The notes beneath the pieces are model-generated. The model was not told the origin of the DNA. It saw only the letters and a list, made by a program, of their open reading frames with translations, and searched no databases. The position numbers and the translations under genes are program-made. Below are positions 6,026 to 55,129 of a stretch of 64,000 nt of DNA, one piece after another. The stretch's first letter is position 1. The number at the start of each line of letters is the position of its first letter. The DNA lies in sequence record SRR31156797_381. One strand, given 5' to 3'.

Positions 6026-7540
6026 TTATGCTTTTTTATAAATTATTACAGGTGCTCCTTTGAGTGCATCTGCTGAAAGATTAGGATTCAGATCCATAAT
6101 GTCCTCAACACTGACTCGACATCTTTTTGCCAATGACCAGAGAGTATCATCTGCTGAAGCAATAGCCAGCATTAGTGTGTATTTGTCATACTGCTCTATC
6201 TCCTCTTCCTCTATCTCTTCTACTACCCGAATCTTCTGACGGCTCATAGCCTTTATGTTTACATCAATCTCAGCATTAGCTATCCATTCATTATCATTAT
6301 TCTGATATATGCTGCTGCGTTTTAGTGTAGCATCACAGGAAATTACTGCATCATCTAATACATGTTCGGTAATTATGTCCAAATTATACAGTGAATCAGT
6401 GCTCTGATATCTGCCGTCCTTGCTCCATACACGTAGTTTTAATAGCCCTGATATAGATAGTTTCTTTCCTTCTGCTACCAAAGCCTCTGCAGTAACATGA
6501 CCTATGCTAAAAAGATTATCACTCTCAAATGTATTATCTAAGGGTAATTTTACTGTTATCTGGCAATTATTCTTCTTGATATATTTAGTTTCTTCAGGCA
6601 GTTCAATATCAACATAGTTCAAAGTCAGTTCACTGTCTGTGCTGTATGCATCCAATACTACGCTGGCTGTATTTGGTACTTCCTGAGACACTATAGAATG
6701 GATTGGAGCCTCAATGGACAATATCTTGCGCTTACCATCCTCATCTTCATATATCTTAATATCCATGTATTTAACATCAATATCTGTACAAACAGTTTTA
6801 TTCTCAATTATATCTGGATTTTCCAATACAATTTCACAAGGTAATTTCGCATAAGTTTTGTCTGTTCCCAGATCATGAGCATAAATAATCTCAACAAGTG
6901 CAAATCCAGATATATTTACGCAGCCCTTTGTTACAACTACATTATCAATTATGTAATTAACTGAGTTATCCAAGAGTGTATTTACCTCAGGCTTACCATC
7001 CTCAATACGGATATCCTGACGAATTGTATTATCTGAATGTGTAGTAATCAGAGAGCTGATCCAGCAGATTTCTGATGTTTTTGTTTCGAATTCATCTGCA
7101 CGACTTGAATTTGCCTGAGCTATCATAATGCCTTGATTAGCATATGCCCAGCCTGTAATCTCTACAACACACTGAGCTGAAATCGAGGATGATGTGGTCA
7201 CCCTGCACTCTTCACTGTTGCAGACAGCTTGGGCATCAACCCACATATTCTCATCAATTGCAGGGTAGCTCATACTGTGCTCAAAGGCTGTTTTCGCTTC
7301 CAAAGAATGCTTAACATCATCTCTGTCTTTGTACACCACTACAAAGTTTACAGAGGCATTTATCTGCACTCTTCCATCTAAACAGGTAGTATCTACATCT
7401 GTGATTTTTGCATGTGAATATATAATTTCTTCGACTAATGGCATAGAGCTGGGTATATCAATAATACCCTGTGCAATAGCCGCTGACATTATTTCAACAG
7501 TGGGAGCATCAAAATTAAGTGAGTAATTTGAATAGTTCAT
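6026..7540 (-). CDS. SPOCS/DUF3794 repeats + C-terminal LysM; SipL-like spore coat morphogenetic protein
   Basis: Repeated beta-rich segments, C-terminal DTLWSLAKRCRVSVEDIMDLN LysM; SigE-type promoter upstream. Confidence 0.75.
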   Translation of the reverse strand: MNYSNYSLNFDAPTVEIMSAAIAQGIIDIPSSMPLVEEIIYSHAKITDVDTTCLDGRVQINASVNFVVVYKDRDDVKHSLEAKTAFEHSMSYPAIDENMWVDAQAVCNSEECRVTTSSSISAQCVVEITGWAYANQGIMIAQANSSRADEFETKTSEICWISSLITTHSDNTIRQDIRIEDGKPEVNTLLDNSVNYIIDNVVVTKGCVNISGFALVEIIYAHDLGTDKTYAKLPCEIVLENPDIIENKTVCTDIDVKYMDIKIYEDEDGKRKILSIEAPIHSIVSQEVPNTASVVLDAYSTDSELTLNYVDIELPEETKYIKKNNCQITVKLPLDNTFESDNLFSIGHVTAEALVAEGKKLSISGLLKLRVWSKDGRYQSTDSLYNLDIITEHVLDDAVISCDATLKRSSIYQNNDNEWIANAEIDVNIKAMSRQKIRVVEEIEEEEIEQYDKYTLMLAIASADDTLWSLAKRCRVSVEDIMDLNPNLSADALKGAPVIIYKKA

Positions 7541-27914: not shown

Positions 27915-28703
27915 CTAATTATTAATCATTTTATTTATTATCTTAATTTGATAAATAATGTTTTTGCTTATTTGTTCTTCGGTTTCACCGTCAATACCAT
28001 TGTATTCAAGTGTAATTATTTGGGGCTTACATATGGACAGTGCAAATTCCAGAAGCTCATAATCCTCACCGTCCATTGCTTTATGGGTATCCATTGGGTA
28101 TCCATCTTCATCAAATGAAGAACCATTTATATGTATTTCTTTGACTCTGTTAATTGGTAAGCTTTTAATATACTCATGAATATCAATATTATGATACATA
28201 GCTGTTATTTTTGCATGAGTTAGATCAAGCAGGAAACCAGTATCAGTTTATTCAGTTATAGTTATATAGTCCTCAGTTTTATAAAATGGATAATGATCAA
28301 AAACAGTCCTGTCTACGGGGCAATCAGGAGGATTTTCTAAAATCAATGGAACATCAAAGCTGCTCTTCATGATATTTATATTAGAAATCATCCTTGATAT
28401 AATCTCGTCCATAGTAGTAGTCGGTGTTACGCTTGAATTATTAATCGATGCATGAATGCCTATATGAGGTGACTGGTATTTCTTTAGCATAGCATTTACA
28501 CTTGAGAAATCTATAATATTAACATCGTCCATACCTATACATTCATTTAGTCCTAATCCATGTAAAAGCACAGGATACTTTTTATGTGTGGAAGCATTCA
28601 ATTCTTCTAAGTTCCAGCTGCCTGCTTTTATATAATCAATTTCCACAATTTCATCTTCTAAGAGTTTACTTAGCTGCCTAGACCAGTTGCATCCAATTTT
28701 CAT
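27915..28703 (-). pseudogene. DUF692/MNIO (multinuclear non-heme iron oxidase) family gene interrupted by an in-frame TAA
   Basis: The two ORFs share a frame; read-through gives LLHG...LILEN...ITE*TDTGFLLDLTHAK...KEIHING...DTH...TLEY; stop at 28248-28250. Confidence 0.8.
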
Positions 28704-28899
28704 ATAATTACTCCAAATCAACATTTATCCTTTATATATACATATCATACTGTTCTCAATTTCTTCTACTGTAATGCCATTTACTAAAAGAAAATCGACA
28801 AATAATCCAAATCAGCCTTTTAATACAAGCACATCTATTATCCCACCTCATAGCACATGTGCTTATTCGATACACCCTTTATCATATTTTACCATTTAA

Positions 28900-32904: not shown

Positions 32905-33213
32905 ATGTTTATTTTACAACTATTAATGTTTCTGGCTCCCGGGTTCTTCGCCTGCATGTACTATTACAATGTGCGAAAAAAGAGCCTTAGTTCAGTCAAT
33001 TACTTTGTAACTTCTCTACTATTCAGTTTTCTAATAACAATATTTTCTATAGTTATGATGCTTCTGCTAAACGGCAATATAGAAATTGCAAAAGTATATT
33101 CAGATTTCAAAGGTGTGGTTACTTTCTCTACTTTTGCAGTGGTAGGAGCTGCAATACTACCGAATATACTGCTTTTATTTTCAATCGGTAAAAAGGAGAA
33201 ATCCAATGAGTAA
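32905..33213 (+). CDS. Small 3-TM membrane protein
   Basis: Three hydrophobic segments; GGGGA RBS; overlaps next start. Confidence 0.65.
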   Translation: MFILQLLMFLAPGFFACMYYYNVRKKSLSSVNYFVTSLLFSFLITIFSIVMMLLLNGNIEIAKVYSDFKGVVTFSTFAVVGAAILPNILLLFSIGKKEKSNE

Positions 33214-34894
33214 CATCAAAAAACTAATTCTTGGCATAGCTTCTATTGTTCTGCTGGCTGTAGTTATTGTATTCGGAGTGCTAAGTTCAGATAAAGATAT
33301 TACAGGTAATCTGAAATCGATTTTTAGTAAAAATACTGAAACTGAACAAGAGGTTGCAGTGGATAGTAATTTAGCAGAAATAAATAAAAGAATTGCTAGA
33401 CAATCCGAAGTGGATGCTATGCTATTAGCAGAACTAGAATCAGGTAATTACACATTAGACAATCCGCTGATTGTAGTTGATCCATATGATTGTTCACCGC
33501 TTACGGCAGTTGTAGTCTTTAATACCGAAAACGAAAGTAAAATATCAATACATGTCGAAGGAGATACTTCCCTCGCTGATGTAGATTTCACATTTGACGA
33601 CTACGGCACAGATCATATTATTCCTGTCTATGGATTATATGCTGACAGGGACAATAGTGTCACTTTAACAGCAACAACTAAAAGCAACTCAAAAGAGGAA
33701 GTTGATTTAACTATTACCACTTCATCATTAAATAAAGAAGTAAACGAGCTCATTATTGCGTCTGATTTAGCCCAACCCAGTAAATATCAGCCGGGTTTTA
33801 CTTTTTGCTTTAGAACACGCTTAATCAATGGAAAGAGCGCATTTGATGTTAACGCAGATGTAAGATGGTTCTTAGAATGTGATTATCAATCTTTTTCAAT
33901 CTATGATTATAATGGCAATATGCTGTTTTATGATGGCTCAGATTATGAGAATGGTTACATTATTGAATGTAATCCTCTAGGCAAAATATATAAGGTAATG
34001 TATGCCAAGTACGGTATACACCACGATTTATGCCAAATTGATGAGGACACACTTTTGACGACGGGAAGCTCTACACCAGATAAAACAGTCGAAGATATCA
34101 TTGTAGCGATTAATACTGAAACAGGCGAAGAAGAAGATATCATGGATTTAAAGACTATTTTCCATACTGCAAGGGATAAAGGAGATGTATCCCTGGAAGA
34201 CCCTTTCCATCTGAATGCCATTGTTCAGGTCGAAGATACCAATGATATACTCCTTTCACTGCGTTCTCAGAATGCAGTTGCCAGAATTTCATGGCCTGAT
34301 GGGGAAATTAAATGGATTATATGCCAGACAAAATACTCCACTCCGATGTATGACCCATATAGGCTTACACCAATCGGCGATGATTTTGAGTATTTTTATA
34401 CACAGCATGCTCCGTATATTATGGAAGATTTAGACGATAATCCTGATACAATTGACATACTTCTATTTGACAACGGAAGAACAAGAGAGCAGTTTGAAGA
34501 TGATATTACAGCAGATGATGTGTACAGCCGTTTAGTACATTACAGAATAGATGAAGTCAATATGACAATAGAGCAAATCGGACAGTTCGGTAAGGAGTAT
34601 GGTCTTGGTTTATTCTCAAATGTCAGAGGCGATGCAAATGTTCTGCCAAACGGTAACTGGATGGGGTTGTTTGATGTAAACACACAAACTGGCGAAGCAA
34701 ACTGGTCAAAAGCTCCTGCATATGTTGAGGTAGACGAGAATATGGATATCGTCTGGATGATGCAGATAACGACATACAGAGAAACGGAAAACGATATTTT
34801 CTTTGCAGAATACAGAACCGAGAGAATGGAAATATACAACTCCAGTGCAAATGACCTACGTATTGGAGAGGACGCTATTAATTTAATAAACTAA
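33206..34894 (+). CDS. Aryl-sulfate sulfotransferase (ASST) 1, N-terminal membrane anchor
   Basis: DPYDCSPLTA, IPVYGLYA, GIHHD, FHLNA, SLRSQN, YTQH, LFDNG, YRTER. Confidence 0.88.
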   Translation: MSNIKKLILGIASIVLLAVVIVFGVLSSDKDITGNLKSIFSKNTETEQEVAVDSNLAEINKRIARQSEVDAMLLAELESGNYTLDNPLIVVDPYDCSPLTAVVVFNTENESKISIHVEGDTSLADVDFTFDDYGTDHIIPVYGLYADRDNSVTLTATTKSNSKEEVDLTITTSSLNKEVNELIIASDLAQPSKYQPGFTFCFRTRLINGKSAFDVNADVRWFLECDYQSFSIYDYNGNMLFYDGSDYENGYIIECNPLGKIYKVMYAKYGIHHDLCQIDEDTLLTTGSSTPDKTVEDIIVAINTETGEEEDIMDLKTIFHTARDKGDVSLEDPFHLNAIVQVEDTNDILLSLRSQNAVARISWPDGEIKWIICQTKYSTPMYDPYRLTPIGDDFEYFYTQHAPYIMEDLDDNPDTIDILLFDNGRTREQFEDDITADDVYSRLVHYRIDEVNMTIEQIGQFGKEYGLGLFSNVRGDANVLPNGNWMGLFDVNTQTGEANWSKAPAYVEVDENMDIVWMMQITTYRETENDIFFAEYRTERMEIYNSSANDLRIGEDAINLIN

Positions 34895-34914
34895 ACTACT
34901 ATTAGGGGGAACTA

Positions 34915-37023
34915 ATGAAAAAACAATCAAAAAGGATACTATTAATCATTGGTGTTATAGTCATTGTACTAGCAGCACTGGCAGCAGCTTATTACTTCTT
35001 TGTAATGAAATCGCCACTTACACCAAGTGCAAAAGAACTAGCTGAATTAACAGAGGTACCAGAAACTGATTTCCTGCAGGCACAAGCTGAAATTGAACAG
35101 GAGATACTTGCTGACTATAGTAACGGCAGTTATACTATTGATAACCCATATATTATAATTGATCCATATGACTTTAATCCTTTGTCAGCATTAATAATAT
35201 TTGATTCTGATACTTCCAGTGATATTACAGTCACTATAGAGGGAACTGATGAGTACTCAACTATTGAATATACCAAATCCATTGATGACACCCACTATGA
35301 AATCCCTGTAATCGGGCTATATGCAGGTAAAGACAATCAAGTAACTATCACCGATGGAGACGGAAATTCTGTTCAATTAACAATCACTACTGAACCTCTG
35401 CCAAGCGACTTTGATACACATGAATTAATAACATCACAACCTGATAAAATGGAACCTGGACTTACTTTACTTAGCAAAGCAATGAATATTTCATACAGTG
35501 CACTTGTTGACTGCTATGGTGAAATCAGAGGATATGTTTCACAGACTACTATGGTTCATGGATCTGCAATAACGCTATTAGAAAATGGTCATATGATAAG
35601 CTCAGGCAATGAATATCTGTTTGGTTCATACAATAAATACACTATGATTGAGTTTAACTGGTTAGGCAAAATATTCACTGAATATCAAATGCCAAATGGT
35701 ATTCACCACGATGTGGAAGAACTGCCTGACGGAAATCTGCTGGTAGTGTCAAATCCTGCTGATGCATTTGCTGCTGGTACTGTAGAGGACGTAGTTATTG
35801 TTGTAGACCGTGAAACAGGTGAAGTAATAAAAGAATATGATTATAGCAATATAGTCGACAATACACTTGTTCCATTCACTAACGGAGCAAATATACAAGC
35901 ATATGGTGCACTTAACGACTGGCTGCACATAAATAGCGCAACATATGATAAGGAGCATAATATGATTATTGCATCTGCTCGTACTCAATCATACGTTGTT
36001 GCGATTGATGCTGATTCTTTAGAAATCCAATGGGTTCTAGGTGCAGATGAATTGTTTGAAGACTCATACATGAAAGATTATCAGCTGACACCAGTTGGAG
36101 ATGATTTTGAGATACAGTGGTGCCAGCATGAAGTGCAGATTATGCCTGATATGGATGACAATTCTGATACTATGGATATAATTCTCTTCGACAACGGTCA
36201 ATATAGATCTACTGATATGGAAACAGTCGTTGCAGCTGAAGATAACTATTCCAGAGGTGTTCAGTTTAGAATAAATATGAGCGAAATGACTGTCGAACAG
36301 ATTTGGCAGTATGGTAAAGAACGGGGAATAGAAACCTATTCTGCAATCTTAGGTGATGCAAACTATTATGAATTAACCGGCAATAGAATGATGTGCTACG
36401 GAGGACAGGTACGAGATGGAGACGGTAATTCTGCTAATAATCCTAGTGTAATATATGGTAACGGCGGCAAGCTGATTTCACGCATTATTGAAGTTACAGA
36501 AGATAGAGAAATTGTCTTTGAGTTAACAGGCGAGCCAAGTGAGAATGATTATTCTGGTGAAACATATCAAGCTACAAGAATACCATTATATGTTGATAGT
36601 GCTTATGACTATCAGTTAGGAGATATCACTGGTGAGCGTCTGGGGACAACACATGTCGAGTCGCAGGTAGCCGATATAAGTGAAATGCCAGAGGAGTTTA
36701 CAGACACTATAGATGTACAAACAAGCAATATCTATCAAAAGGATAACAGGCTGATAATATCAGGCACAATCAAAGGAACAGGAGATATGAATTCAGTTAT
36801 TGGCATCTGTAATGTTGCATTTATTTCAAAAAGTGAGTGTATAGCATACGAAACACGTATTGGCAGCTCTGGTGCATTCCTTGCATCTATTGATTTATCT
36901 GAACTGCCAAAAGGCGAGTATATGATTACTTACTATGGAGAAGTTACAGAATCATCTACTATGGAAGATGCTGAGTTTGTATCAGGTCACATAAAGAGCG
37001 GTTACAAAATCACAATCGAATAA
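34915..37023 (+). CDS. Aryl-sulfate sulfotransferase (ASST) 2, with C-terminal extension
   Basis: DPYDFNPLSA, IPVIGLYA, GIHHD, DWLHINS, SARTQS, WCQH, LFDNG. Confidence 0.9.
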   Translation: MKKQSKRILLIIGVIVIVLAALAAAYYFFVMKSPLTPSAKELAELTEVPETDFLQAQAEIEQEILADYSNGSYTIDNPYIIIDPYDFNPLSALIIFDSDTSSDITVTIEGTDEYSTIEYTKSIDDTHYEIPVIGLYAGKDNQVTITDGDGNSVQLTITTEPLPSDFDTHELITSQPDKMEPGLTLLSKAMNISYSALVDCYGEIRGYVSQTTMVHGSAITLLENGHMISSGNEYLFGSYNKYTMIEFNWLGKIFTEYQMPNGIHHDVEELPDGNLLVVSNPADAFAAGTVEDVVIVVDRETGEVIKEYDYSNIVDNTLVPFTNGANIQAYGALNDWLHINSATYDKEHNMIIASARTQSYVVAIDADSLEIQWVLGADELFEDSYMKDYQLTPVGDDFEIQWCQHEVQIMPDMDDNSDTMDIILFDNGQYRSTDMETVVAAEDNYSRGVQFRINMSEMTVEQIWQYGKERGIETYSAILGDANYYELTGNRMMCYGGQVRDGDGNSANNPSVIYGNGGKLISRIIEVTEDREIVFELTGEPSENDYSGETYQATRIPLYVDSAYDYQLGDITGERLGTTHVESQVADISEMPEEFTDTIDVQTSNIYQKDNRLIISGTIKGTGDMNSVIGICNVAFISKSECIAYETRIGSSGAFLASIDLSELPKGEYMITYYGEVTESSTMEDAEFVSGHIKSGYKITIE

Positions 37024-37047
37024 ATATATTCATATTAATACACAGAC

Positions 37048-37083
37048 ACAGGCATATCATTATGGTATGCCTGTTCTTTTTTT
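37048..37083 (+). terminator. Terminator after ASST2
   Basis: ACAGGCATATCA-T-TATGGTATGCCTGT followed by a T-run. Confidence 0.75.
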
Positions 37084-37202
37084 ATATAGTATTACATTTA
37101 CAATCATATCTGCCTAACAATATATCCATTATTCTATAGTTATAATATCCCAATTATGATATAATAATTGTTGAGTTTTTATAGGTTATTTGGGGGAATA
37201 CA

Positions 37203-39305
37203 GTGGATAGAAAGAAAAAGCTGCTATTAATTTATTGCATAATAATCCTGATATTATTAATTCTAATCGGAGGTTCTATCTATACCTTAACTCAAGGTAT
37301 ACTGGTAAAACCAGATGCAGAAGAATTAGCTGGATTAAATAATATACAAGATAAAGATATTATAGAGTTCCAGTGTCAGCGTGAAATTGAAATTTATTCT
37401 GATTATTACAGCAATCATTATACTATGAAAAGTCCCTATGTAGTTACAGACCCATATAAATTTAACCCATTATGTGCTCAGGTTATTTTCGATGCAGACT
37501 ATTCTAGCGATATCAGAGTTGTAATAGAAGGCAAAGATATATATTCAACAATAGAATACACAAAGACAATTAATGACACTCACTATGAAATACCAATTAT
37601 AGGTCTGTATCCTGATACTCATAACAAGGTACATATATACGATAACAGAGGCAATTGCAAGGACTTAACATTTCTAACTCCTCCTCTACCTGATGACTTT
37701 GAAGTATATGAAATGGTAACCTCCAATCCTCAGTTAATGGGAAAAGGGTTAACTCTTGCATCAGCATATTATGAAAATTCATATACCGCCCTACTAGACT
37801 GTTATGGTGATGTCAGAGGATATATTTCCAACAAACAAATAGCTCATGGTACATCAATTACGCTATTGGAAAACGGCAGAATATTATCTGCTGGAGATGA
37901 ATACAAGTATCTTCCTAATAATATGACCAATCTATATGAATATAATTGGCTGGGAAAAGTATTTAAAGAATATATGATACCAAATGGTATCAGCTGCAAT
38001 GTGAAAGAGCTTGATAACGGCAACTTGATTGCTGTAAGCAACAGATATGATATGTTCCATCACAGTACAAACAATGATACAGTAATTATTATTGATAGGA
38101 ATACTGGTGAAATAATCAAAGAATATGATTTTAATGATATCCTGGGCAATACAAAGCAGGCTTCTTCCTTCTTTATGCAGAATAATTTCGTTTATTCACC
38201 AATAAATGACTATCTCATGATAACTTCTGCAGAGTACAATAATCAAAACGATAGCATTATTGTAGCATCAAAAAAACAATCTCAATTAATATGTATTGAT
38301 GCCAAGACAAGTGAGATAAAATGGATAATTGGCTCTTCTGATAATGACGAAGAAACCAGTGATTTTTTGTCAGACTATCAATTAACACCAACTGGCGAAA
38401 ATTTCCAATGGCAGCGAAGCCAGCATCAGATTACGATACTGCCTGATATGGATAATAATGAAAATACAGTAGAGATAATCCTCTTTGATAATGGCCAGAA
38501 CAATAGTTATTCAGAGGAATATACTTTTACCACTGAAAATAGTTACCCAAGAGGAGTTATCTACAGCATAGATGAAAGGAACATGACTGTAAAACAATTA
38601 TGGGAATATGAGAATATGCTAGAAACCCAGTGCTATAATACTATCCTAGGATATGCAGATTATTTACCTGTAACACAAAACAAGATAATATGCTATACCA
38701 GCCAGGATCAGACAGATAATGATGAGATAGAAAGTATTGCATCAAGTAATCAGATAGTATCAAAGATAGTTGAGATTACAAATGAAAATGAAGTAGTCTA
38801 TGAAGTTACATGCACTCCTTCAGATAATGATTATTCAGCAAATATCTATCAGGCTAAGAGAATACCATTGTATATAGATAAAGCTTACAATTACTATATA
38901 GGAAATATTTATGGTCAGCGAATAGGCAACGAGTTGTGCGACAACTTGATAACGAACAAGAAAAACGCAGTACCAATTTACTTTACAGATTCACTGTCAG
39001 TCAATTTTAATACTCTATATCAAAAGGATGATAGATTAATAATCGATGCAGTATTATCAAAGAGTGACGATACTTCTATAAACAATCAGATTAATCTAGC
39101 ATTAATATCACAAGAAGATAAATTCGGCTTTACAACACGGCAGGGGTTATCCGGCAGAATATTATGCTCTATAAATTTAACACAAATTCCCAAAGGAGAA
39201 TATTTAATATCATTCTATGCAGATGTCAATTGCGAAGATGCTCCCTTTATATTTAGATGGATGAAAGGACACTGCAGAACAGAGTATAAAGTAGCAATAC
39301 ATTGA
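37203..39305 (+). CDS. ASST paralogue 3 with degenerate active-site motifs
   Basis: Colinear with ASST2, but GISCN, YLMITS and ASKKQS replace GIHHD, WLHINS and SARTQS; SQH retained. Confidence 0.82.
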   Translation: MDRKKKLLLIYCIIILILLILIGGSIYTLTQGILVKPDAEELAGLNNIQDKDIIEFQCQREIEIYSDYYSNHYTMKSPYVVTDPYKFNPLCAQVIFDADYSSDIRVVIEGKDIYSTIEYTKTINDTHYEIPIIGLYPDTHNKVHIYDNRGNCKDLTFLTPPLPDDFEVYEMVTSNPQLMGKGLTLASAYYENSYTALLDCYGDVRGYISNKQIAHGTSITLLENGRILSAGDEYKYLPNNMTNLYEYNWLGKVFKEYMIPNGISCNVKELDNGNLIAVSNRYDMFHHSTNNDTVIIIDRNTGEIIKEYDFNDILGNTKQASSFFMQNNFVYSPINDYLMITSAEYNNQNDSIIVASKKQSQLICIDAKTSEIKWIIGSSDNDEETSDFLSDYQLTPTGENFQWQRSQHQITILPDMDNNENTVEIILFDNGQNNSYSEEYTFTTENSYPRGVIYSIDERNMTVKQLWEYENMLETQCYNTILGYADYLPVTQNKIICYTSQDQTDNDEIESIASSNQIVSKIVEITNENEVVYEVTCTPSDNDYSANIYQAKRIPLYIDKAYNYYIGNIYGQRIGNELCDNLITNKKNAVPIYFTDSLSVNFNTLYQKDDRLIIDAVLSKSDDTSINNQINLALISQEDKFGFTTRQGLSGRILCSINLTQIPKGEYLISFYADVNCEDAPFIFRWMKGHCRTEYKVAIH

Positions 39306-44379: not shown

Positions 44380-44880
44380 CTATTTTATCTTAAATATTTC
44401 CTTCATGTTGCATACCTGAGAGTGACAAAGTGCTATTGCCAAAGCATCCGCTGCATCATCCGGCTTTGGTATCTTGTCCATATTAAGAAGTACCTTTACC
44501 ATCTGCTGAACCTGCATTTTATCTGCATGCCCATATCCGCACACAGCTTGCTTCACCTGCATTGGAGTATATTCATAAAGATTATCTGAGCCAATAAGAT
44601 TATTACCAGCTATTACGCAGACACCCCTCGCCTGCCCTACATCAATGCCAGTTGTTACATTACGATAAAAGAAAAGCTCCTCATAAGCAATATTATCAGG
44701 CTTATGGCAATTAATAAGCTCTGTAATATCCTCATATATTATGGAGAGACGCTTGGGCAAAGGCATTTTGGCAGGGGTTGATATAATGCCATAATCTATA
44801 AGCCTTGTACATCTGTTATTCTTTTCTACGACTCCGAAGCCAATAGTCGCCAGCCCGGGGTCAATACCTAGAATTATCAT
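44380..44880 (-). CDS. ruvC: Crossover junction endodeoxyribonuclease RuvC
   Basis: ILGIDPG, QARGV, PDDAADALA. Confidence 0.97.
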   Translation of the reverse strand: MIILGIDPGLATIGFGVVEKNNRCTRLIDYGIISTPAKMPLPKRLSIIYEDITELINCHKPDNIAYEELFFYRNVTTGIDVGQARGVCVIAGNNLIGSDNLYEYTPMQVKQAVCGYGHADKMQVQQMVKVLLNMDKIPKPDDAADALAIALCHSQVCNMKEIFKIK

Positions 44881-45029
44881 TATAATATTGTATCATATTA
44901 TTGTTGGTTAATGCTAGTCATTTTGTTGCACAATACAGAACATTTAATTCTAATAAAAAAAGAAGCAACATAAAGCACTTCTTTCAAATTATATAGTATT
45001 AACAATTGAATAACCAATTGCATTCATCA

Positions 45030-45953
45030 TTACTTTTTCAAAATATATGGAATATCTGTGCATATTGGTTCGAATCCTAATCGTTTATAAAATACCTGAT
45101 CAGAGCCTACATACATTTTTATTGCTCCCAAATCAATACTTCTGTTAATTAATTCATTGATTACTGCCCTGCCAAGACCTTTCTTTTGTTCAGAAACAAT
45201 TGTACCTACCGGTTCAAGTATAGCAATTTCATTTTTACTATCAAACCATGCATTAGCAAATGATCCAACACTCCCATTATCGTTTAGTACAAACAAATCC
45301 AATTCTGTGCGATAATCAGGCTGTAGTCTCATAGCATCAAAGCCTATAGCACAATTTAACTTAAGCTTTTCATCTGCATCATACCCAAATGCCAAGCGAT
45401 GTGAATCAGAACGTTCAGTACTTGAAACCTCATCTCTGTTTACGATACAGTAACCTTTTGGCAGGATTACATCTCTCTTATAATCAATTAACAATACTGA
45501 TGCCTTCTCTTCCCAATCACCCTTTTTGTATCCTCTTTTCTTTGCTATATCAGCAGCCTTTTGATTTTCCTTCGCTATACGTAATATGACTTCCATGTTA
45601 CCATCTTTTTTAATCATTAAATTAGTTTCTACAAAGTCAAACATTTCATTTAATACAGAAGCAGGCAAATCATATGTTGAAATCTGAAAAAATGCTTCTC
45701 CTCTAAGTTCTCCCTCTGTGTTTACTATGGCTATCAGTTCATCATCAGCGTACCATAGTCGATTATGTTCCTCAAAGTATTTATCGTCAGTTCCATTCAT
45801 TGCAGCAGAAACGGTAATAGTAAACTCCAGTCTGTCAATAAACCAATTGGGAGATATATCAAAAGTCTTATAGTGTCTTATAAGAAAATTTCTGACCTCT
45901 AAATATCTATCCATTGTCATTTGCATACTAGTAATCCTGCAGTTTTCATACAT
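45030..45953 (-). CDS. GNAT family acetyltransferase
   Basis: LEPVGT...QKKGLGRA...FYKRLGF; GAGGAGG RBS. Confidence 0.8.
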   Translation of the reverse strand: MYENCRITSMQMTMDRYLEVRNFLIRHYKTFDISPNWFIDRLEFTITVSAAMNGTDDKYFEEHNRLWYADDELIAIVNTEGELRGEAFFQISTYDLPASVLNEMFDFVETNLMIKKDGNMEVILRIAKENQKAADIAKKRGYKKGDWEEKASVLLIDYKRDVILPKGYCIVNRDEVSSTERSDSHRLAFGYDADEKLKLNCAIGFDAMRLQPDYRTELDLFVLNDNGSVGSFANAWFDSKNEIAILEPVGTIVSEQKKGLGRAVINELINRSIDLGAIKMYVGSDQVFYKRLGFEPICTDIPYILKK

Positions 45954-46012
45954 TATATTTTCCTCCTCTTACGATATCTTGGTCCTTAACGTATATCACA
46001 ACTACTCTAATA

Positions 46013-46041
46013 TTGCTAATTCCTACATCCCATAGTATAAT
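46013..46041 (+). promoter_or_regulatory. SigA promoter for the raiA-motif RNA
   Basis: TTGCTA-17 bp-TATAAT ending 7 nt before the terminal helix. Confidence 0.75.
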
Positions 46042-46048
46042 GAGTAGC

Positions 46049-46255
46049 ATCTTTGCAGGTCTGTGATTGAAAGTCGATGCTAGTCGCGGGCAAAACGATC
46101 CACATAAGCTGATAAAAATATCAGTGAGCATGGCGCGGTTTAGAGGTAAGTCCAGCCTTGGGAGACCAAGAGAGGTGAGGCGTGATGGGAATACACCCTA
46201 AGCAAGACACTCAGCTGGCGGGTGTGGGGTCAAAAATCAGGTCAGCTGCAAAGAT
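46049..46255 (+). ncRNA. raiA motif RNA
   Basis: GC-rich island closed by ATCTTTGCAG/CTGCAAAGAT; signature strings TTGAAAGTCGATGC, GGCAAAACGATCCAC, TGAGCATGG, GTAAGTCC and GTGTGGGGTCAAA..CAGGTCA match the family as I recall it. Confidence 0.88.
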
Positions 46256-46264
46256 TATTTTTTA

Positions 46265-46823
46265 TCAGTTTTTTATAGTCATTGACTCACGTCTATTATA
46301 CTCCCGCTCTAATAATGCATATTGATATGAGCTAAACCATAAAGGATTGCCATATTCATCTGCCTTAAAGAACATATTGTCAATCCTTGTGGCTTCTCTG
46401 CGAAAATTCACCCTCTCAAGCAATCTCCATGATGCCATATTCTCAGTATTGCAATATGCTATTATTCTGTGTGCTTTAAGTGAATTAAATAAATAGTTTA
46501 ACAGGCATATGACTGCTTCAGTTGCATACCCCTTGCCTTGGTAGTGCTTATTAAATACAAACCCTATCCCATATGTATCTACTTTTTCTGGAGTTATTTT
46601 ATTAAAGTACAAGTTACCAATTAACTTGCCTGTACCCTTTAGACATACCACAATAAATGAAGGATTATCTGCCGGTTATCACTTCGTCCTCTGCCATATC
46701 CAAAGTAAATGGTTCATATGGCTCATATAGTACTACATCTGCGTCAGATAAATATTCATACAAATCATCTTTATCGCTGGACATAAATCTTCGGAGACTT
46801 AGACGCTTGCTTACTAATATCAT
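46265..46823 (-). pseudogene. RimJ/RimL-type GNAT acetyltransferase, frameshifted
   Basis: ATG 46823 MILVSKRLSLRRF...EDEVITGR* (TAA 46665-46667); continues in another frame as ADNPSFIVVCLKGTGKLIG...QGKGYATEA...NMASWRLLER. Confidence 0.78.
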
Positions 46824-46855
46824 TATGTATCTCTTTACTAAACAAATAGTACTTT

Positions 46856-47599
46856 CTATTCTTTAGGCTTTCTCTTAATCTTATCCCACATTTTATATGT
46901 ATGCGGTTTTTTAATCGCCAGCATAATATATTTCTGTGCATCATGGCCTTCAGCGAATTTATCCAAAAGCTTTATCAATTCTTTCATATCCTGCCGTTTT
47001 GTTTCTCCGTCAGCTGGACATTGAGATTTGATAATTGGCAGACTATTTCGCTTCTGAGCGAGAATAACTTCCTTTTCTGAAGCATATATCATAGGACGTA
47101 TCTGGGTAATATCTGCCCTGTCCATATATGTCAATGGTGCAAATGTATTCAGCCTGCCTTCATACAGCAATCCCATCAAAAACGTCTCAACTACATCATC
47201 TCTGTGATGCCCTAGTGCAATTTTATTAATATCATAACGCTTACAGACATCATGAATAGCACCCCTTCGCATCTTTGAGCACAACGAGCAGGGATTCTTT
47301 TCCTGTCTGCTTTCAAAAACTACACTATAAATATTTGTCTTTTCCACATGATACGGGATATCCCATTCATCGCACAAATCCTGTACAACCTGAGTATTCA
47401 TATTCTCTTCTATTCCCATATCTATGGTTATTGCATGTAGTTCGAACTCGGCTTTGGAAAAATATCTAAACAGGTGCATTGCCTTTAGCAGCACCATGGA
47501 GTCTTTGCCGCCAGAAACCCCAACGGCAATTCTATCTCCATCTTGTATCATATCAAAGTCTTCAACTGCTCTCCTGATGCAGCTTAGAATATATCTCAT
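46856..47599 (-). CDS. ttcA: tRNA 2-thiocytidine biosynthesis protein TtcA family
   Basis: SGGKDS PP-loop, PCSLCSKMRRG, GHHRDD. Confidence 0.88.
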   Translation of the reverse strand: MRYILSCIRRAVEDFDMIQDGDRIAVGVSGGKDSMVLLKAMHLFRYFSKAEFELHAITIDMGIEENMNTQVVQDLCDEWDIPYHVEKTNIYSVVFESRQEKNPCSLCSKMRRGAIHDVCKRYDINKIALGHHRDDVVETFLMGLLYEGRLNTFAPLTYMDRADITQIRPMIYASEKEVILAQKRNSLPIIKSQCPADGETKRQDMKELIKLLDKFAEGHDAQKYIMLAIKKPHTYKMWDKIKRKPKE

Positions 47600-47602
47600 A
47601 CA

Positions 47603-49438
47603 TTAAATTCCTAAAACTATATTTTCCTGCTCCTGTTTGAACTGATTAGTGTACAGATTATAATAATGACCATTGTTTTCTAGCAGTTCTTCATGTGTAC
47701 CGTCTTCAATTATCTTGCCCTTTGAGATAACCAATATTCTGTCAGCATGTCGTATAGTTGACAGGCGGTGAGCAATGATGAAACTGGTTCTGCCCTGTAA
47801 TACTTTTTCAATCGCAGACTGAATAATTGCTTCTGTCTCAGTATCAATAGAGCTTGTTGCCTCATCCAATACAAACAGTGCAGGATCAGCAAGTATAGCA
47901 CGAGCAAAGGAAATAAGCTGTTTCTCACCCGTTGAGAGCTTACTTCCGCCTTCACCTACTACTGAATCGTATCCATGAGACATTCTCTCGATGAAGTCAT
48001 GAGCATTTACCATCTTTGCAGCTTCTATTACCTGCTCTTTAGTAGCATTTAGATTACCATAAGCAATATTATCATATATCGTACCAGAAAACAGGAATGG
48101 CGTCTGCAGCACGTAGCCTAAATTTGAGTGCAGCCATATCTGGGAACGCTCTCTGTAGTCAACTCCATCAATCAGCACTTCACCCTTTGTTGGTTCATAG
48201 AATCTGCACAGCAGATTTACAATTGTACTCTTTCCGCTTCCTGTCTCTCCGACTAAGGCTATAGTATCTCCCTTATTTACATTCAGATTAAAGTCTTCGA
48301 GCACTTTTTCGCCGGTTTTATACTTGAAGTCTATGTCCTTAAACTGGATATTACCCTCTAACTTTTCCCAGTTTTCTTTCTTTAGATTAATTTCATCACC
48401 ATATTTCGCTATAACATCATCTCTGTCAATAATATCACTGCTAGATTCAACTAATCCCAGAACTCTTTCTGCGGCAGCCTGTGAAGACTGAAGTTCACCA
48501 AAGATTCTGGCAATCTGGTAAATAGGTTCAAAAAACATAGCTGACATTGAGATGAAGAAATTCAGTTCACCGTACATGATAGCCTTATCCAACACCTGCT
48601 CGCCGCCAACAAACAGCATTACAGCAGTTGCAATTGCACCAATAGTCATAACAATAGGCATGTATATTGATGATACTGTAGCTGCCTTAATAGATGCTCT
48701 TCTCATTCCTGTTGTCAATCCGTCAAATTCCTCGAAGTTTTTATCCTCACGCATCAGGGTCTTTGTAGTGCGTGCACCCATTATACCCTCGTTAAATGCT
48801 GATGTTATCTTTGAATTCATTTTCTTAACACGTCTTTGATATTTCAAGATTATTGTACTAAAATATCCTGACGCGAATGCTATAGGAATAATTACAGCAA
48901 TTATTATCAATGCCAGTTTCCAGTTAATAATCAGCATTCCAATTAATGCTGCAATCATGAAGAACACGCCCCATACAATATCTACTAATGCCCATGCAAT
49001 AGTCTCCCCTAGTCTGTAGGCATCTGCCGTCATTCTTGCCATAATAAACCCAACAGGTGTTACGTCATAATATGACAGCGATAGTTTCTGCAATTTATCG
49101 AAAGCATCATTTCTGATATCATATGTAATATGAGTCTCCAGAATTCCTGCCTTAAAAATAAAGAAAAAGACTAAAACTCCTGCAACAAGTCCAATAGCCA
49201 GATATCCTATTGCAAAATTAGTTAAACCAGTACTGTCTCCTGCAATTACAAATTCGTCCAATGCATAGGACCTCATATATGGCAGGACTACGTCTACTAC
49301 AGCCATTACTATCATAGCTATACTCATCAATATCAGATGTTTTTTGTGGTTCATAGCATAGGTTAAGAGTTTACCCCAGGTTTTTATCTCAACCTTTTTA
49401 TATTCAAATTCCTCTTCATAGTAATTCATCGTATCCAC
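47603..49438 (-). CDS. Heterodimeric ABC exporter, TMD+NBD (consensus NBD)
   Basis: GETGSGKST, LSTGEKQ, LDEATS, AHRLSTI. Confidence 0.92.
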   Translation of the reverse strand: MDTMNYYEEEFEYKKVEIKTWGKLLTYAMNHKKHLILMSIAMIVMAVVDVVLPYMRSYALDEFVIAGDSTGLTNFAIGYLAIGLVAGVLVFFFIFKAGILETHITYDIRNDAFDKLQKLSLSYYDVTPVGFIMARMTADAYRLGETIAWALVDIVWGVFFMIAALIGMLIINWKLALIIIAVIIPIAFASGYFSTIILKYQRRVKKMNSKITSAFNEGIMGARTTKTLMREDKNFEEFDGLTTGMRRASIKAATVSSIYMPIVMTIGAIATAVMLFVGGEQVLDKAIMYGELNFFISMSAMFFEPIYQIARIFGELQSSQAAAERVLGLVESSSDIIDRDDVIAKYGDEINLKKENWEKLEGNIQFKDIDFKYKTGEKVLEDFNLNVNKGDTIALVGETGSGKSTIVNLLCRFYEPTKGEVLIDGVDYRERSQIWLHSNLGYVLQTPFLFSGTIYDNIAYGNLNATKEQVIEAAKMVNAHDFIERMSHGYDSVVGEGGSKLSTGEKQLISFARAILADPALFVLDEATSSIDTETEAIIQSAIEKVLQGRTSFIIAHRLSTIRHADRILVISKGKIIEDGTHEELLENNGHYYNLYTNQFKQEQENIVLGI

Positions 49439-54565: not shown

Positions 54566-55129
54566 TTGAGCATATTTGAATTAATTGTAATATCTATAGC
54601 CCTTGCAATGGACTGTTTCAGCGTATCCATATCCTGTGGTCTGTGTGATATATATCATAAGAGAAGAACTGCCACCAGAGCAGGCTTATATTTTGGAACG
54701 TTCCAGGGATTAATGGTCCTGGGCGGTCTGTTAACTGCATCAACCTTTGCAAAATACATTGAACCTATTGACCACTGGGTAGCATTCGTACTTCTTTGTT
54801 TTATCGGCGGCAAGATGATATATGAAGCATTCAATGAAGGCGAAGAAAGAGCAGATATGACTTCCACTAAATCCATGATAATACTGTCAATAGCAACCAG
54901 TATAGATGCATTTGCAGCTGGTATTGGATTGGCTGCAGTCAGTGCTCCAATTCTACTGTCAGTAATAATGGTTTTTTCAGCGTCTCTTATTCTGTCTTAC
55001 TTTGGTGTACTAATTGGGTGCAGACTGTCAAAGAATAATCCTTCAAAACTCTTTGATGTATTAGGCGGAGTAATCCTGCTTATAATTGGAACCAAAATAC
55101 TCATTGAACACTTAATGCAGCATCAGTAG
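54566..55129 (+). CDS. mntP: Manganese efflux pump MntP family (TTG start)
   Basis: ALAMDCFSVS, DHW, ATSIDAFAAG. Confidence 0.88.
   Translation: MSIFELIVISIALAMDCFSVSISCGLCDIYHKRRTATRAGLYFGTFQGLMVLGGLLTASTFAKYIEPIDHWVAFVLLCFIGGKMIYEAFNEGEERADMTSTKSMIILSIATSIDAFAAGIGLAAVSAPILLSVIMVFSASLILSYFGVLIGCRLSKNNPSKLFDVLGGVILLIIGTKILIEHLMQHQ

Follow-up and report, generated by a model that had tools for sequence, protein, structure and literature searches.

A full-length raiA-motif (ModT) RNA gene with its own promoter between two minus-strand GNAT genes

In a window of 64,000 nucleotides (the whole stretch of sequence record SRR31156797_381 that was analysed), a short plus-strand element lies between two minus-strand genes. 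An initial annotation, made from the letters of the DNA, had called it a stand-alone raiA-motif RNA; we asked whether it is a true member of that family and what it could do where no gene follows it on its own strand. The family, whose member in Clostridioides difficile is known as ModT, comprises 2,377 different sequences from 2,720 species (2024 PNAS paper, PMC10861870). Our analysis leads us to read the element as a functional, self-transcribed raiA-motif (ModT) RNA gene of about 210-215 nt that acts in trans, a reading to which we give a probability of roughly 0.9.

The identification as a raiA-motif RNA is upheld by a covariance-model search, the check that had been suggested at the outset. 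Positions 46050-46254 (+) match Rfam RF03072 (raiA) over model positions 1-209 of 209, that is over the entire model, and score 176.3 bits where the curated cut-off is 101.3 (E 9.6e-45), a wide margin of 75 bits. A tRNA at 128-45 is the sole other Rfam family in the 64 kb, and a permissive scan of 44800-47700 gave no family besides raiA at E <= 1. Mapped onto the secondary structure of the Rfam model, the window sequence forms 53 of the 57 model pairs as standard pairs. The differences from the consensus had been described as compensatory and they do behave in this way: 21 of the 57 model pairs (42 positions) keep their score as pairs despite non-consensus letters, a count made on the Rfam alignment for this one sequence against the Rfam consensus. 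The four non-standard pairs are 46103/46129, 46104/46128, 46108 against a gap, and 46190/46195. Two of the four are explained by the updated structure model, since C46103 and A46104, unpaired in the older Rfam drawing, are both paired there in P4; disagreement between the Rfam and updated models in the P3/P4 region is noted in the ModT paper.

The RNA gene extends over 46049-46255 (+), with a core of about 205-207 nt. With subtype and helix names that follow the text, as distinct from the figures, of a cryo-EM paper (2026, PMC12968392), it appears to belong to the subtype that has P5-P8 and lacks P2, of which the C. acetobutylicum RNA is an example. The 5' strand of P1 (46049-46068, +) comprises P1a (46049-46058), a GU bulge (46059-46060), P1b (46061-46063) and P1c (46064-46068). 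The 3' strands (46223-46255, +) hold in turn P4 (46223-46227), the PK2 strand with a bulged A (46229-46234), P1c (46235-46239) and, in the remaining P1 part (46240-46255, +), a GGU bulge (46240-46242), P1b (46243-46245) and P1a (46246-46255). The closing helix of 10 bp that the initial annotation had drawn is present, 46049-46058 pairing with 46246-46255. The Rfam model counts nine of these pairs (46050-46058 with 46246-46254, 9/9 formed), and A46049-U46255 is an extra tenth; a letter check gave 3/3 pairs for P1b and 5/5 for P1c. Both P1 bulges, the GU and the GGU, carry letters that are conserved according to the cryo-EM paper, which names the length of P1a as conserved too. A long-range pairing of TGATTGA with TCAAAAATCA, also drawn initially, stood in part: five of its base pairs (46064-46068 / 46235-46239) are P1c, and its other letters fall in the GAAA turn and the PK2 strand. 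This turn (46069-46072, +), which comes directly after U46068 and was read from the sequence, corresponds to the GAA(A) tetraloop-like turn that links P1c straight to P3 in P2-less RNAs. By the letter check RNA positions 19-23 are UGAAA and position 183 is an A, so that U19, G20-A23 and A183 of the C. acetobutylicum numbering hold unchanged in this RNA; in the C. acetobutylicum RNA A183 is the long-range partner of the turn.

The P3a/P3b hairpin follows at 46073-46099 (+), with P3a formed by 46073-46076 and 46096-46099 (4/4 complementary), and its distal loop (46082-46088) provides the 5' strand of PK1. The second long-range pairing that had been noticed, of TAGTCGCG with CGCGGTTTAG, is this pseudoknot PK1 of the published description, 46082-46088 and 46134-46140 being complementary over all 7 bp (7/7). 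The 5' strand of P4 (46100-46104, +) pairs with 46223-46227 at 5/5 positions. The 3' strand of PK1 (46134-46140) and the conserved 10-nt single-stranded linker UUAGAGGUAA (46140-46149) together occupy 46134-46149 (+). In the three solved RNAs the linker reads UUAGA(C/A)GUAA (PMC12968392); ours matches it, with a G at the single variable (C/A) position. For PK2 we found only short complementarity around the bulged A46232, and its 5' partner may lie at about 46125-46129. The core hallmarks named by the cryo-EM paper, namely P1a, the GU and GGU bulges, the GAAA turn, PK1, P4 and the linker, are present.

The two local hairpins listed by the initial annotation are peripheral arms. The first is P5 (46109-46124, +), with a 6-bp stem and a 4-nt loop, and it is seen in the sequence, in the Rfam alignment and in the minimum-energy fold; four of its model pairs are off consensus and still scored as pairs. 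The second, with a 5-bp stem and a GAGA loop, is P7 (46157-46170), which is enclosed together with P8 (46174-46211) by P6, the whole arm covering 46152-46218 (+). P6 itself is the CCAGC/GCTGG pairing that had been pointed out before (46152-46156 / 46214-46218, 5/5 complementary). The P8 helix is present, and the letters that the model conserves in its internal loop are replaced in our copy, in a part of the molecule where the confidence of the Rfam alignment is lowest. We take this off-consensus loop to be the E-loop. In the family an E-loop in P8 that docks on PK1 is said to be "often" present and is not universal (PMC10861870). The minimum-energy fold of the core has a z-score of -2.81 (-1.11 with the 3' flank added); it retains P1, P5 and P7 and loses the pseudoknotted core, a loss that is expected. 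The RNA would fold into the published compact core made of P3a-P3b, P4, PK1 and PK2, from which P1 would extend as a long arm, P5-P8 forming the peripheral arms.

The promoter that had been seen in front of the element, TTGCTA-17-TATAAT, was located at 46013-46041 (+) and is of sigma-A type, with the -35 box at 46013-46018, a 17-nt spacer and the -10 box at 46036-46041. Scoring 10 out of 12, it is the top of four promoter-like sites in 45800-46500, a region that is unenriched overall (4 sites compared with 2.5 +/- 1.4 in shuffles). Sites of at least 10/12 occur 67 times in the 128,000 positions of the window, which gives an expectation of 0.0026 for the five-position slot before P1. The -10 box ends 8 nt ahead of A46049, leaving 7 nt between, and transcription is predicted to start at 46047-46049, most likely at A46049, the first base of P1a. 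Transcription would then be independent and driven by the housekeeping sigma factor. The -35 box overlaps an opposite-strand TTAGCA (46014-46019), a possible promoter element for the divergent gene; no convincing -10 box was found after this TTAGCA.

At the other end, a U-rich run (46255-46263, +; 8 U in 9 nt) lies directly 3' of P1a. Folding of 46256-46300 gave no hairpin 3' of the RNA, and a scan of 45800-46500 for classical terminators, which covers loops of 3-8 nt and is blind to P1, gave 0 sites. It may be that P1a and the U-rich run together act as the terminator, in which case transcription would stop within 46255-46263, just past P1, and the run would likely mark the end of a transcript of about 210-215 nt. 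A single isoform is expected here because no separate terminator is predicted, as for the C. acetobutylicum RNA.

Both neighbours had been described as minus-strand GNAT genes, and GNAT-domain matches on both bear this out. The divergent neighbour (45030-45953, -) encodes a 307-aa protein whose GNAT domain, at the C-terminus, is weak (PF00583, 21.6 bits at a cut-off of 20.7; PF13508, 24.4 bits at a cut-off of 27) and whose N-terminal part of about 215 residues has no assignment; the gene starts 96 nt (45954-46049) from the RNA, and to its left lie ruvC, ruvA, ruvB, queA and tgt. The convergent neighbour is a RimJ/RimL-like GNAT gene (46265-46823, -) whose stop codon is 2 nt past the U-rich run. 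It is read in two frames, 46823-46665 and 46651-46265, giving an N-terminal piece of 52 aa and a C-terminal piece of 128 aa that matches PF13302 positions 58-138; three-frame translation places the change of frame near 46665-46680. The two pieces look like one gene, which would be either a pseudogene or the product of a sequencing error. Further to the right come a TtcA-like PP-loop gene and two genes for ABC exporters. The idea that GNAT genes and the RNA are linked was dropped: in Dataset S1 (PMC10861870), which gives 20 neighbours per genome, "GNAT" occurs 70 times, about the background by rough reckoning. In a few rows of Dataset S1, TtcA or RuvC stands among the neighbours.

The RNA is the sole plus-strand feature between 40569 and 54259, within a 14-kb block of minus-strand genes. 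That no same-strand gene follows it proved correct: 3' of the RNA the plus strand has nothing but short mechanical frames, which run antisense to the GNAT gene, and the next plus-strand ORF of at least 70 aa starts at 54566, 8.3 kb downstream. The absence of a nearby raiA gene was confirmed over the whole 64-kb window, in which none of the 59 ORFs of at least 70 aa matched hpf/RaiA or ComF (NCBIfam on all 59, with 14 left unmatched; Pfam on those 14, after which 5 ORFs are still without a family). The window thus lacks the usual neighbourhood of comFC, RNA and raiA/hpf, which is not obligatory for the family. Elsewhere the RNA follows comFC in 74% of cases and precedes raiA in 66%, at variable distance and orientation (PMC10861870), and the gene upstream of it is usually on the same strand. 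A lone plus-strand placement of this kind agrees with the view of the ModT paper that synteny is a poor guide to the function of the RNA.

What could such an RNA do? Genetic complementation has shown action in trans in two species (PMC10861870 and the ModT paper), the PNAS paper reporting rescue in trans of sporulation and aggregation defects, and in C. acetobutylicum deletion of the RNA gene left the levels of neighbouring mRNAs unchanged (PMC10861870). The context here suggests that our copy too would act in trans, in agreement with the complementation in two other species. By homology the RNA may be abundant and stable, the ModT of C. difficile having a sigma-A promoter and very high abundance. 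It would probably function as part of a ribonucleoprotein, in which the candidate partner, KhpA-KhpB, would sit on the exposed linker: the cryo-EM paper (PMC12968392) reports KhpA-KhpB binding at about 2 uM, and the conserved linker is the published candidate site. This partner is disputed, since earlier C. difficile analyses, as cited in the ModT paper, found no binding between ModT and KhpB. The ModT paper ties the RNA to the growth-phase transition and to c-di-GMP, and the RNA encoded here may likewise help to set the moment at which growth gives way to stationary phase and sporulation, partly via c-di-GMP levels.

The closest points of comparison are the two well-described RNAs. The locus shares with ModT of C. 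difficile the sigma-A-type promoter and a context with nothing to regulate in cis, here together with a full-model match; the excess of G+C is also common to both (50% in the RNA and 36% in the window here, 45.6% and 29.1% for C. difficile ModT). Unlike C. difficile ModT, in which a downstream terminator produces a second, longer isoform, it has no downstream terminator hairpin. The RNA of C. acetobutylicum (Ca-raiA, 204 nt) is P2-less and P8-bearing and falls in the same length class as ours (205-207 nt); the two have P5, P6, a short P7 and P8 in common. For Ca-raiA a single isoform and no predicted terminator are described. Ca-raiA directly follows comFC, whereas our window contains neither comFC nor raiA/hpf and the genes to either side of the RNA run on the opposite strand, unlike at the usual ModT/raiA loci. 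The G in the linker and the off-consensus P8 internal loop also set our copy apart from the solved RNAs and from the model, respectively.

Relatives of the neighbours offered a further comparison. The 307-aa protein has two relatives in the species collection, in a spirochaete MAG and in Paenibacillus (36-38% identity; unrelated phyla), and the TtcA-like neighbour has relatives at eight metagenome loci (43-55% identity, mostly short). An Rfam scan of these 10 loci, all of them from distant relatives, gave 0 raiA matches and one tRNA, a blank that tells little about synteny among closer ones. RF03072 had no match in one genome that was searched, and 14 control genomes were equally without a match, which leaves that blank uninformative. 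Sequences close to the RNA itself were met in an RNA library, one run of which contains 0.06 of the sequence words. A contig of 171 nt, from a close relative, aligns to 46059-46229 with 7 differences, and another agrees over 46059-46109 before diverging. Close and more distant relatives of the RNA are thus present in an RNA library, which hints weakly at best at a transcribed gene here, the run consisting of metatranscriptome contigs that may include DNA, with the flanks of the RNA gene outside their cover.

The alternative that survives best, though we consider it unlikely, is that the element is a displaced or decaying second copy and that the working raiA-motif RNA gene occupies another site of the genome, flanked by comFC and hpf. 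Its placement is indeed a minority one, given the 74% after comFC and 66% before raiA found elsewhere, the frameshifted gene on one side and the rare gene on the other are what a variable region may contain, and the P8 internal loop is off consensus. Decay fits poorly with a full-model score 75 bits beyond the cut-off and with the fact that every conserved letter and helix that we tested is intact, and the near-consensus promoter stands at exactly the right distance. Nor is the placement without parallel, as some rows of Dataset S1 (PMC10861870, part 1) have neither ComF nor RaiA within ten genes. No flanking repeats or mobile-element scars were found around the GNAT-RNA-GNAT block; the repeat matches there, of 14-20 nt at 73-93% identity, are read as chance. 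A self-transcribed, trans-acting RNA gene thus remains our preferred reading.

More speculatively, the element could be the only raiA/ModT gene of its lineage, relocated out of the comFC-hpf neighbourhood to a head-to-head position in which it would share the 96-nt control region with the gene of the rare 307-aa GNAT protein and be co-regulated or cooperate with it. We regard this as a long shot. If it were true, such a lineage-specific partnership of RNA and acetyltransferase would offer a way into the biochemistry of the family.

Could the RNA instead act chiefly on its neighbours, in cis or as an antisense transcript, by read-through into the GNAT gene or by interference with the promoter of the 307-aa gene? 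The geometry would allow it, with the U-rich run ending 2 nt short of the convergent stop codon and the 307-aa gene starting a mere 96 nt from the RNA, and Rfam carries RF03072 under the type label "Cis-reg; riboswitch". A cis role was already doubted in the 2017 discovery paper, and the family is trans-acting in the two species examined. At this locus the nearest same-strand ORF of at least 70 aa is 8.3 kb away, and the convergent GNAT gene is already broken. Moreover, the two relatives of the 307-aa gene lack the RNA (0/2 loci), and the lack of an RF03072 match in the one genome searched weighs weakly in the same direction, the controls being blank too. With riboswitches and cis-regulatory leaders the RNA has in common a complex conserved fold with pseudoknots; unlike them, it has no same-strand gene downstream, runs at once into a U-rich stretch and belongs to a family that acts in trans. 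Its mode of action is not that of a riboswitch, and cis or antisense action of any kind seems to us very improbable compared with independent action in trans. That the element encodes a small protein is scarcely credible: a 44-codon frame (46067-46201) and a 47-codon frame (46182-46325) are both open, but they start with TTG and GTG inside conserved helices, conservation tracks the RNA structure model, and the conserved features of the family include no coding region, as PMC10861870 notes.

The raiA-motif RNA at 46049-46255 is hence a clear, full-length copy with its own promoter and an ordinary member of its family, ordinary because placements away from the usual flanking genes are already on record. 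The initial annotation rated the find too highly in this respect, stand-alone placement and action in trans having both been published; nothing in it is new, and a routine Rfam scan gives the same identification. The copy has its use as a clean natural example of this RNA as an autonomous gene. In annotation the stretch should carry the label raiA-motif/ModT RNA gene, and the short frames that overlie it should be disregarded.

Elsewhere in the window, a SipL-like protein with a SPOCS domain and LysM is encoded at 6026-7540 (-). We take SipL-type proteins to belong to spore-coat assembly and to indicate a spore-forming clostridial host. The G+C content of 36% together with the SipL-type protein fits, and so suggests, such a host. 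Hosts of the RNA family are Bacillota or Actinomycetota (PMC10861870). Three paralogous arylsulfotransferase (ASST) genes (562, 702 and 700 aa) stand in tandem at 33206-39305 (+), flanked by four plus-strand ORFs without a family match. Finally, two adjacent ORFs of 94 and 158 aa at 27915-28724 (-) each match parts of MNIO-type RiPP maturase models, and the pair may be a split MNIO gene.
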